Source: Escherichia coli (GTDB taxonomy: Bacteria; Pseudomonadota; Gammaproteobacteria; Enterobacterales; Enterobacteriaceae). Taken from it: a DNA stretch of 64,000 nt. The stretch lies in the NCBI RefSeq assembly GCF_050320075.1, contig NZ_CP190018.1. One strand, 5' to 3'. The notes below the pieces were generated by a model. The model made no database searches. It saw nothing but the letters and a program-made list of their open reading frames with translations, and was not told the origin of the DNA. Position numbers and translations under genes: made by a program. Positions 39,453 through 40,330 of this stretch are shown here, in pieces (the first letter of the stretch is position 1; every line of letters starts with the position of its first letter).

Positions 39453-39471
39453 AAATAATTGCATTTACCTA

Positions 39472-39500
39472 TTGACTTTTACTAACAGAAATGTTAGAAT
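39472..39500 (+). promoter_or_regulatory. near-consensus sigma70 promoter
   Basis: TTGACT - 17 bp - TAGAAT. Confidence 0.5.
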
Positions 39501-39506
39501 AATAAA

Positions 39507-39750
39507 TGTTGGGTTTGGAATCGAAAATAGGTGTTAGCTGGCGTTAATCCTTCTCCCGATTCTAATCCTACACGAAAGCGGGGTAGACCTCAAGGGGTCG
39601 CGCCCTATCTAACCTATCCCGCTTTCCCTTTACAGTGATTTTTTAGAAATTGTTTCCCTCGTTAATAGTTTCATTTTATTTTCCTTATTGCTTTATCAAA
39701 ATTGTGTCTTAAGAATGCAGGGGCTACGGATTTGGCCCCTCATCTTTTTA
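39507..39750 (+). ncRNA. candidate small non-coding RNA (about 240 nt)
   Basis: Strong promoter, internal GAAAGCGGG ... CCCGCTTTC stem, terminator at 39719-39750, no ORF with an RBS. Confidence 0.3.
39719..39750 (+). terminator. intrinsic terminator
   Basis: AGGGGC-tacggatttg-GCCCCT followed by CATCTTTTT. Confidence 0.5.
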
Positions 39751-40253
39751 ACCAACTGCGAAGCATGAAACACTTTCTAAAAACACTGTTTACAGTGTCT
39801 ATAAACCCCGTATAAACAAATAACGGTGTATATCTGTTTCTTGACAACAGTTTTCTACTAAGCTTAAAGCTGAATATGTTTTTGTTTGTTGGTGTTTATT
39901 AAGGTGCCAATCTTAGAACGCGAAAGCGTGGATGATCCCCGAAATCATCTCGGCACCGCCTCCTATTAAAATGAGAATCCAAAAGGTTTGAAAGTTAATA
40001 GGTGATTCCTGAAAGTCTGATCGATGCATCCACATTGTGAAAGACAGCGATTAGCCGTCGCACGAATAACAGGTTTATAGATTCCTCTCCAAAGGGGGCG
40101 ACCTCCTAAGCGCCTACTCCCTGTAAGCCTGTTATTCACCCCTCAAGGGTATATAACAATAAGCAATCTTATTCTTATATGTCCTCCTCTTTAAGTTCAT
40201 ATAAACTGCGATTTAGTAACACTCTATAACATCCTTCAAATGTTGTATTCATA

Positions 40254-40290
40254 AAGCCGGAAGCTTTCCCCTTCCGGTTTTATTTTTATC
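40254..40290 (+). terminator. intrinsic terminator-like hairpin
   Basis: GCCGGAAG-ctttcccc-TTCCGG followed by TTTTATTTTTAT. Confidence 0.45.
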
Positions 40291-40330
40291 AGCACTAAAC
40301 AAGACTGTTAGGAATAAAGGTAAAGCAATA

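Follow-up and report, generated by a model that had tools for sequence, protein, structure and literature searches.

A Candidate Long Structured RNA Encoded Ahead of the Capsid Genes in a Satellite-Like Integrative Element of Escherichia coli

Introduction

To our knowledge, phage satellites steer their helpers mostly by means of proteins, and RNA regulators have been documented in only two systems, the CI RNA of P4 and the SviR RNA of the satellite PLE. The P4 CI RNA and the C4 RNA of P1/P7 are immunity RNAs of a satellite or prophage. Each is processed out of the leader of the operon under its control and acts via short complementary boxes, located in that transcript or in neighbouring ones. 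In the late region of lambda (pR'-6S RNA-tR', together with Q) and in HK022 with its put RNA, a strong, constitutive-looking promoter yields a short terminated RNA, behind which come another stretch free of open reading frames (ORFs) and then late structural genes that lack their own promoter. RsaE/RoxS, LhrC, RNAIII, and RepG mask ribosome-binding sites with C-rich or C/U-rich loops. Here we describe an 880-bp gene-free gap, located at positions 39453-40330 of a 64,000-nucleotide stretch of an E. coli chromosome (contig NZ_CP190018.1, referred to as the window). The best explanation of the gap is that it encodes a long and highly structured non-coding RNA, which belongs to a small satellite-like integrative element related to phages.

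SviR from the Vibrio cholerae PLE is a satellite small RNA (sRNA) produced from an ORF-free intergenic region with a single promoter and a rho-independent terminator, and it occurs as several length species of 160-300 nt (10.1101/2022.04.08.487710). Inverted repeats flank sviR before the start site and after the terminator, and the RNA lowers the translation of helper-phage targets and affects satellite mRNAs (10.1101/2022.04.08.487710). The gap resembles sviR, in a comparison of organization only, by being satellite-encoded and ORF-free, with a promoter, a terminator, and flanking inverted repeats. Its RNA, however, would be up to ~785 nt long with many more domains, and the host, the helper, and the element are unrelated. 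As for P4 CI and C4, the window also contains complementary boxes (39618-39631 and 39671-39686), but the C4 model of Rfam does not match, the gap RNA has about ten times the length, and the boxes are not conserved in the family. Moreover, its host element is not of the P4 kind. The late leader of lambda has terminators between a promoter and promoter-less late genes, an arrangement that we also meet here. In contrast to lambda, we found no Q, N, or qut-like feature, the nearest phages belong to the Stephanstirmvirinae and are not lambdoid, and the gap leader is much longer and has a structure conserved by covariation. Similar to RsaE/RoxS, LhrC, RNAIII, and RepG, the gap RNA has several redundant pyrimidine-rich hairpin-loop motifs complementary to purine tracts of the Shine-Dalgarno (SD) type. 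Whereas those RNAs are 70-500 nt long, chromosomal, and mostly from Gram-positive bacteria, here an extended look-alike of the 16S rRNA tail (CCUCCUAAG or CCUCCUUAA) is found in an enterobacterial mobile element.

Rfam 15 gave no match in the gap, with the window searched at gathering thresholds, 39300-40450 at E <= 10, and nine relatives included, which rules out C4/CI, GOLLD, ROOL, riboswitches, and similar families. A preliminary description of the gap, made from the sequence alone, had considered a regulatory RNA analogous to the P4 CI RNA plausible. The covariance-model search speaks against an RNA of the CI/C4 family even at the permissive threshold, and the P4 analogy, in which a leader RNA controls downstream genes, is a reasonable working model and not a statement of family membership. 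A regulatory role as such is plausible. The gap RNA has no detectable relation to P4 CI, is several times larger than P4 CI and SviR, and follows another motif logic based on hairpins with loops that resemble the anti-Shine-Dalgarno sequence. A ToxI-like type III antitoxin RNA, which would have tandem direct repeats between its promoter and terminator, ahead of the toxin gene, was also considered and rejected, as 39453-40330 contains no tandem repeats.

A covarying fold on the + strand

The + strand of 39507-40295 (789 nt) folds with -234 kcal/mol versus -176 kcal/mol for shuffled sequences (z = -12.1). The z-score is -3.5 for the - strand and +0.4 for an equally long part of the neighbouring capsid gene. 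Folded separately, 39507-39752 and 39753-40295 have z-scores of -3.7 and -5.9, respectively. We consider it very probable that this locus has a genuine structured RNA on its + strand, and the comparison with related loci (numbered with the prefix L) points the same way.

The gaps of the relatives fall into subfamilies that are barely alignable with one another, namely subfamily A from E. coli, which includes the window, subfamily B from E. coli, group C from Citrobacter, Enterobacter, K. aerogenes, Cronobacter, and Pseudenterobacter, and single representatives from Escherichia sp. (L007), K. pneumoniae (L011), Dryocola (L020), Serratia (L017), and a metagenome (L021). Only two blocks, 39523-39556 and 39994-40141, can be aligned between A and B, and the middle region (39751-39995) is unalignable between subfamilies except for UCCUAUUAAAAU. 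We built the covariance model R1 on the second block. It recovers L006, L032, and L033, none of which was in the seed, at 95-109 bits. Over 11 variants of the 3' core, 99.1% of the cells are paired and 15 of 30 pairs carry compensatory changes, as opposed to 32-46% paired cells and 0-3 compensatory pairs in the slid controls. Read as the + strand, the cells include 28 G·U pairs and no more than 3 non-pairs, which makes the + strand the strand of the RNA. The covariation is located in the 3' part (39996-40145), which the preliminary description had not singled out.

In the core, single-stranded motifs are invariant on varying stems: GAUUCCU, the loops CAUCCA and UUAGCC, and the apical loop (A/C)CCUCCUAAG. 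The apical stem reads by eye GGCG/CGCC, UUGGC/GCCAA, or CAUG/CAUG, and the apical loop has an unpaired probability of 0.8-0.9. No single model covers all subfamilies, as R1 matches groups A and B only. Group C has its own structure with 96 pairs, in which 90.4% of the cells are paired (45-53% when slid) and 23 pairs are compensatory (4-13 when slid); these counts are somewhat optimistic because the structure was derived from the same alignment.

The 5' part contains two domains (Table 1). The block 39523-39556 of domain I is conserved between A and B; the outer-stem sequences differ, but independent folds result in the same architecture. The 9-bp stem GAAAGCGGG/CCCGCTTTC noticed in the preliminary description is present and forms the core of the 13-bp inverted repeat of domain II. 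Since subfamily B has the hairpin AUGGAAGGUGAUA/UAUUACCUUCCAU at the equivalent place, with similar internal motifs (CCUCAAGG, UCUAAC), this stem belongs to a conserved domain. Domain II is absent from L002. A helix of 17 nt, formed by 39640-39656 with 39767-39783, brackets the terminator T1, and the C/U-rich loops of the 3' hairpins have a counterpart in subfamily B, where CCUCCUCAAAG lies in a hairpin loop.

A promoter-to-terminator cassette without genes

The promoter P1 and the two terminators T1 and T2 had been recognized before and are found at the same sites, P1 having in addition a TG ahead of its -10 element. Promoter-like matches alone occur at chance level (3 in 3 kb versus 6.7 expected from shuffles), and P1 is convincing because of the comparison across subfamilies, not because of the promoter match alone. 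In every subfamily scanned, the gap starts with a promoter of the form TTGAC(A)-17/18 that has an extended -10, and an intrinsic terminator lies near the gap end; the scan covered all subfamilies but L021, and the Serratia promoter was identified by eye only. The promoters of the relatives include those of L008 (11/12 matches, TG), L014, L011, L020, and L007 (all with TG), and L002, and the consensus TATAAT occurs in L022 and L029. The gap-end terminator was flagged by the scan in L014, L011, L020, and L007 and seen by eye only in L008 and L002. At the place equivalent to T1, subfamily B shows terminator-like hairpins of other sequence by eye, and the scan flagged none in L002. The cassette spans 0.25-0.95 kb without a conserved ORF, lies directly 5' of the decoration-like and capsid genes, and has an identical orientation relative to its flanks in every locus fetched and aligned. 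TTGACA at 39842 was rejected as a second promoter for the 3' half, because it lacks a usable -10 and its spacing is not kept in L003.

T2 is predicted to form the 3' end of a ~785-nt RNA, and T1, which is maybe leaky, may end a ~245-nt species. The preliminary description had proposed a structured small RNA. A non-coding, promoter-driven, terminator-bounded, and structured + strand RNA agrees with our analysis, but with a predicted ~785 nt and a nested form of ~245 nt it can hardly be called small. Three E. coli genomes (hits H77-H79) retain only the first 228-371 nt of the gap, comprising the promoter and the 5' part of the RNA, with 98-99% identity. Such natural truncations could be used as ready-made mutants.

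The absence of genes from the gap is borne out as well. None is annotated in 39453-40330 in any of the 63 carrier E. coli genomes, no ORF is conserved between the subfamilies (A or B and C share no peptide link), and both GGAG and AGGA occur 0 times on the + strand. It could still be argued that the gap harbours unannotated small genes. Small ORFs do exist, the candidates being ORFs of 35 and 37 aa on the + strand, ORFs of 40 and 57 aa on the - strand, and a 14-codon ORF on the - strand behind AAGGAAAATAAAATG, and - strand 39686-39671 exactly repeats a ribosome-binding site that looks functional, together with its ATG. However, peptides of different subfamilies are similar over 9-26 aa only (mostly 15-20), in several frames and on both strands, which indicates conservation of the nucleotide sequence, not of a protein. 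Together with the missing SD-like motifs on the + strand, this makes a coding function extremely unlikely.

Table 1. Positions of the features in and around the gap, numbered as in the window
Feature	Position	Strand	Remarks
Promoter P1	39472-39500	+	TTGACT-17-TAGAAT, extended -10 (TG); 10/12 consensus matches
Palindrome O1	39482-39497		CTAACA-N4-TGTTAG (TAAC-N6-GTTA type), in P1 spacer and -10; candidate operator, read from sequence
P1 transcription start (predicted)	near 39507	+	
5' domain I	39508-39573	+	Outer stem around hairpin AGGUGUUAGC-UGGC-GUUAAUCCU (39529-39551), then unpaired UCUCC (39552-39556)
5' domain II	39574-39626	+	13-bp hairpin GAAAGCGGGGUAG/CUAUCCCGCUUUC (arms 39574-39586 with 39614-39626)
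Terminator T1	stem 39719-39740, tail to ~39750	+	8-bp GC-rich stem, then CAUCUUUUUA
Variable middle region	39751-39995	+	Local hairpins, e.g., ACGC-GAAA-GCGU (39916-39929); CCUCCU at 39959-39964
Conserved 3' core	39996-40145	+	150 nt; covariance model R1
Core H1	40015-18 with 40042-45 plus 40022-26 with 40033-37		Loop CAUCCA
Core H2	40047-50 with 40058-61		Loop UUAGCCG
Core H3	40064-80 with 40121-37		17 bp
Core apical hairpin	40097-100 with 40111-14		Loop ACCUCCUAAG (40101-40110)
3' hairpins	40146-40250	+	C/U-rich loops UCCUCCUCUUUAAG (40183-40196) and CCUUCAA (near 40230)
Terminator T2	stem 40251-40283, tail to ~40293	+	13-bp stem, then UUUUAUUUUUAU
Palindrome O2	40298-40314		CTAAACA-AGA-CTGTTAG; 17 nt before first capsid-module ORF
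Replication-initiator-like protein	37032-37697		Second element
Run of small ORFs	between replication-initiator-like gene and gap		
71-aa ORF	ATG at 40331	+	First of capsid module
123-aa ORF			Occupies the position of the head-decoration gene
Major capsid protein	40939-41967		Phage_cap_E fold
Tape-measure-like protein	42331-44172		

Palindromes at both ends of the gap

The palindromes O1 and O2 pair with each other as repeat I7. O2 is placed inside a degenerate copy of P1 (TTATCA-17-TAGGAA, 40285-40313), which fails the promoter scan. TAAC-N6-GTTA is found at both places, in the P1 spacer and just past T2, in A, B, and most of C. In group C, the O2 palindrome is extended to a longer inverted repeat, the arms of which change in step (CUGCAUG/CAUGCAG versus CUGUGUG/UACACAG). 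Paired palindromes at both ends thus suggest, as far as the sequence can tell, one DNA-binding protein acting at both, and their placement recalls the inverted repeats flanking sviR. A 58-aa ORF among the early genes (36908-37084, MNINFDSATYNALLNRAKAEGKSIPKLVNELL...) has by eye the look of a ribbon-helix-helix protein and could encode a putative O1/O2 binder.

Palindromes on both flanks might also be expected if the gap functioned as DNA, as a replication origin, a packaging (cos/pac) site, or a looping or invertible segment between the palindromes, with the RNA folds being incidental. Compatible with such a role would be the small recombinase gene with which the element begins on its left side, an AT-rich stretch (39640-39900), and GGGGGCGACCTCC at 40096-40108, which is similar to the lambda cohesive end GGGCGGCGACCT. 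Yet the G·U pairs and compensatory changes favour a + strand RNA, the strand asymmetry of CTCC versus GGAG is strong, the promoter and the terminators are conserved, and the gap contains neither iterons nor tandem repeats. We regard a DNA-level element as very unlikely, and even when combined with the coding explanation, the probability remains small. A lambda cos site was rejected because GGGGGCGACCTCC sits in an RNA hairpin with a stem differing between subfamilies and its sequence is not conserved. An invertible switch between the palindromes was rejected as well, because every fetched locus has the same orientation and an inversion would destroy P1.

Pyrimidine-rich loops and ribosome-binding sites

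In 11 representative RNAs, we counted 45 copies of CTCC versus 6 of GGAG, and 57 of TCCT versus 12 of AGGA. CCTCCT is found in 7 of the 8 subfamilies and TCCTAAG in 5 of 8, and the motifs persist throughout RNAs ranging in length from 235 to 945 nt. Several motif copies, including the signature loop, are predicted to be unpaired with probabilities of 0.8-1.0, compared with a mean of 0.35-0.41. Motifs of this kind occupy hairpin loops in A, B, K. pneumoniae L011 (ACCUCCUAAGA), Cronobacter L019 (CCUCCUUA), and Dryocola L020. The hairpin loops are G-poor; those of the window copy are C-rich, and several contain CCUCC/UCCU. Judged by its sequence, the signature loop (A/C)CCUCCUAAG resembles the anti-Shine-Dalgarno tail of 16S rRNA, which is represented by the CCUCC core and the string ACCUCCUUA (PMC6288834, PMC5732282). 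A 20-nt match to the motif outside the family, in the IMG/VR contig L031, was dismissed as a chance match, since it lies inside a 980-aa ORF of an unrelated contig.

GGAG-type ribosome-binding sites precede 4 of the 8 real early genes (36702-39452), and the four genes of the capsid module (40331-44172) have weak AAGGA-type sites only. Between the RNA and the early mRNAs of the window, we found 4 complementary stretches of at least 14 nt versus 0.37 expected, a number reached in 0 of 500 shuffles. One of them, 16 nt long and without a mismatch, covers the ribosome-binding site and the ATG of a 73-aa ORF. The two boxes mentioned above, 39618-39631 and 39671-39686, are complementary to 39285-39298 and 38702-38717, respectively. 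At 39671-39686, the 16 nt at 38702-38717 with the ribosome-binding site and ATG of the 73-aa ORF (AAGGAAAATAAAATGA) are duplicated exactly and in inverted orientation, and the - strand of the gap therefore has this initiation region as well, with a 14-codon ORF behind it. Most subfamily A copies retain the duplication, but not L004. It might serve as a target box for antisense pairing, be left over from a duplication event, or form a mini-ORF.

The RNA probably controls the expression of genes of the element or of the phage that the element exploits. As for the mode of action, we tentatively prefer a trans-acting base-pairing riboregulator, for which SviR offers a precedent, a possible but by no means assured interpretation. 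Transcription would start near 39507 from P1, which is overlapped by the operator-like palindrome; part of the transcripts would stop at T1 (~245 nt) and the remainder at T2 (~785 nt), both boundaries being predicted. The resulting string of hairpin domains would expose pyrimidine loops that could pair with purine-rich ribosome-binding regions of the early genes of the element, of helper-phage genes, or of both, thereby lowering their translation. Capsid-module genes with their weak AAGGA-type sites would escape. The same cassette would probably also gate the transcription of the capsid genes, because no sigma-70 promoter is found between T2 and these genes.

Several observations weigh against a trans-acting riboregulator. 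The transcript ends are predictions, and G-poor unpaired regions are common among structured RNAs in general. With 0.8 kb and z = -12, the RNA is more elaborate than usual base-pairing sRNAs, and the promoter-free interval between T2 and the capsid genes is equally compatible with a cis-acting leader. The excess of complementarity is present in the window, L002, L006, L009, and L010 but absent in L008, L011, L014, L018, and L021. A conserved internal CUUAGGAGG target was not found, and ranking of duplexes against the translation-initiation regions of phage ESCO5 singles out no target. For the decoration gene of the helper, ESCO5, FKP3, and phiWec179 share a conserved initiation region, AAUCUUAGGAGAUU, which is complementary to the CUCCUAAG loop (13 nt for L014), but duplex energies put it near the bottom of 33 phage initiation regions. 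The match of UCCUUCUCC/GGAGAAGGA to the ribosome-binding site of the 58-aa ORF fails in group C. Our search of the element and of candidate helpers thus yielded no conserved target, and specific antisense control of the early genes is a weak candidate at present.

Transcription of the capsid module

We found no sigma-70 promoter between T2 and the first capsid ORF in the window, L008, L014, L011, L002, L020, and L007, and in the window the tail of T2 is only 37 nt from the ATG. The capsid genes may thus depend on transcripts that start at P1 and pass both T1 and T2. Accordingly, the RNA might instead be a cis-acting late leader, which we consider conceivable, if on the unlikely side. The capsid module would then be transcribed from P1, with the 0.8-kb RNA as its 5' leader and with T1 and T2 holding the capsid genes off until an antiterminator, be it a helper protein, a protein of the element, or a put-like RNA element, permits read-through. 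The discrete RNAs would be by-products or sensors, like those of lambda pR'/6S RNA/tR' or P4 PLE/CI. This arrangement is consistent with the two serial terminators in the window and L020, and seemingly two by eye in subfamily B, as well as with the promoter-proximal hairpin being among the two blocks conserved between A and B. The inverted repeat after T2, with arms changing in step in group C, also resembles a part of a 5' untranslated region.

On the other hand, T2 is strong in nearly every subfamily, and no antiterminator family was recognized among the proteins of the element, Pfam columns included. Nor did we find features supporting Q, N, or put antitermination or T7-like promoters. The nearest phages are large lytic myoviruses and not lambdoid phages with Q or N, and known antitermination signals are short, without need for a subfamily-specific leader of 0.25-0.95 kb with z = -12. 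Moreover, Serratia L017 has a promoter-like site between the terminator and the ORF. A trans-acting regulator and a cis-acting leader both fit the locus, and they are not mutually exclusive.

Hairpin arrays and large structured RNAs

The fold itself raises another alternative, a protein-binding or architectural RNA. The hairpin array could sequester or scaffold a protein that recognizes the UCC/CCUCC loops, in the manner of CsrB and CsrA, or the RNA could be a large ribonucleoprotein (RNP), a ribozyme, or a self-assembling RNA, as known from other giant RNAs associated with phages, with a role in virion assembly, packaging, or host takeover. CsrB/RsmZ are also modular hairpin arrays repeating a short loop motif, with varying unit number and length. 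The motif of the gap RNA, in contrast, is the complement (UCC/CCUCC), with 0 copies of AGGA, 0 of GGAG, and no GGA motif, and CsrA therefore cannot be the partner. GOLLD and ROOL share with the gap RNA the size class of 0.5-0.8 kb, a very stable fold, and the location in phage-related DNA, but no covariance model matches, and the sequence of the gap RNA is much less conserved between subfamilies.

An architectural function would account for the extreme stability of the fold, the modular hairpins with invariant loops (CAUCCA, UUAGCC, GAUUCC, and CUCCUAAG) on covarying stems, the persistence of the motifs despite a length varying from 235 to 945 nt, and the proximity to the capsid genes in every relative. 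It is, however, rather improbable, considering that no partner protein is identifiable and that neither GOLLD, ROOL, OLE, raiA, HEARO, nor any other Rfam family matches. The R1 core is, furthermore, limited to E. coli A and B, whereas cores of ribozymes and RNPs are usually more widely conserved.

A bolder proposal, to which we likewise give little credence, is a new large (0.25-0.95 kb) RNA class specific to an undescribed family of satellites that carry capsid and tail genes and have large lytic myoviruses as helpers. Its multiple 16S-tail-like CCUCCUAAG loops would serve as an anti-Shine-Dalgarno decoy that shifts translation during helper infection from genes with strong sites, namely helper and early element genes, to the weak-site capsid genes of the satellite; or else the RNA would be a structural component of virion assembly.

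The host element

The preliminary description had spoken of a phage-like module and drawn an analogy to P4-type satellites. Phage-related genes are indeed present (Table 1), but they belong to a separate element with its own integrase and not to the P4-like island of the window. The window is 100% identical to the chromosome of E. coli strain YZLc1-3. Its P4-like island comes after tRNA-Gly(CCC) at 12857 and contains an integrase, the int-alpA RNA (14354-14421), a DUF927 primase, SSB, and ProQ. The second element, which includes the gap, has ~10 kb and extends from ~34.3 kb to its integrase gene. According to the RefSeq annotation, this gene is located just right of 44172 on the opposite strand and encodes a tyrosine integrase. 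This second element (window ~34300-45500) seems to be integrative and satellite-like, and it is unclassified. Its structural set consists of decoration-like, capsid, and tape-measure-like genes, with neither a portal nor a terminase.

The genes are arranged identically in relatives from Citrobacter, Pseudenterobacter, Enterobacter, Klebsiella, Cronobacter, Dryocola, and Serratia, and a Dit-like gene is present in addition in some of these. The closest phage relatives are Stephanstirmvirinae (Phapecoctavirus and Justusliebigvirus), which are large lytic myoviruses. Sequence identities are 24-26% for the capsid protein, ~30% for the tape-measure protein, and 24-32% for the structural proteins overall, and the order of decoration followed by capsid is common to both. 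No match of the element to deposited phages was found at the DNA level, and the literature searched contained no publication describing the element or the RNA.

The element is carried by 63 of 5426 complete E. coli genomes. The RNA is located at the hinge between early and capsid genes, and this position is kept in at least 6 genera while the sequence is almost completely replaced. Acting in trans via anti-Shine-Dalgarno-like loops, it would provide a phage parasite with a simple and general way to bias translation; acting as a checkpoint in a leader, it would reveal how the timing of capsid production is set in elements of this kind. In both cases, it adds a new RNA family and an unclassified satellite-like element. 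About 1% of the complete E. coli genomes have this element, among them those of O26:H11 outbreak lineages.

On its left side, the element ends with another large stretch free of ORFs (34347-36668). A near-consensus promoter, TTGACA-18-TATAGT (35516-35545), is followed there by 2.3 copies of a 23-nt tandem repeat (35552-35604), and ~1 kb past the promoter folds, with z = -6.6 for 35552-36300. The stretch is 85-98% conserved in the E. coli relatives, including subfamily B, and other genera have a gene-free gap of ~1.8 kb at this place. It could encode a further structured RNA, or else serve as an origin or for packaging.

The cargo of the neighbouring P4-like island includes a four-gene operon (23054-30715) encoding large proteins of 843, 686, and 925 aa in addition to one of 104 aa. 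The operon has no annotation and no PADLOC match, and it is a candidate defence or accessory system. Among other known RNAs, the int-alpA RNA of the island scores 47 bits, and the window also contains STnc490, an Hfq-binding sRNA (61096-61219, 144 bits).

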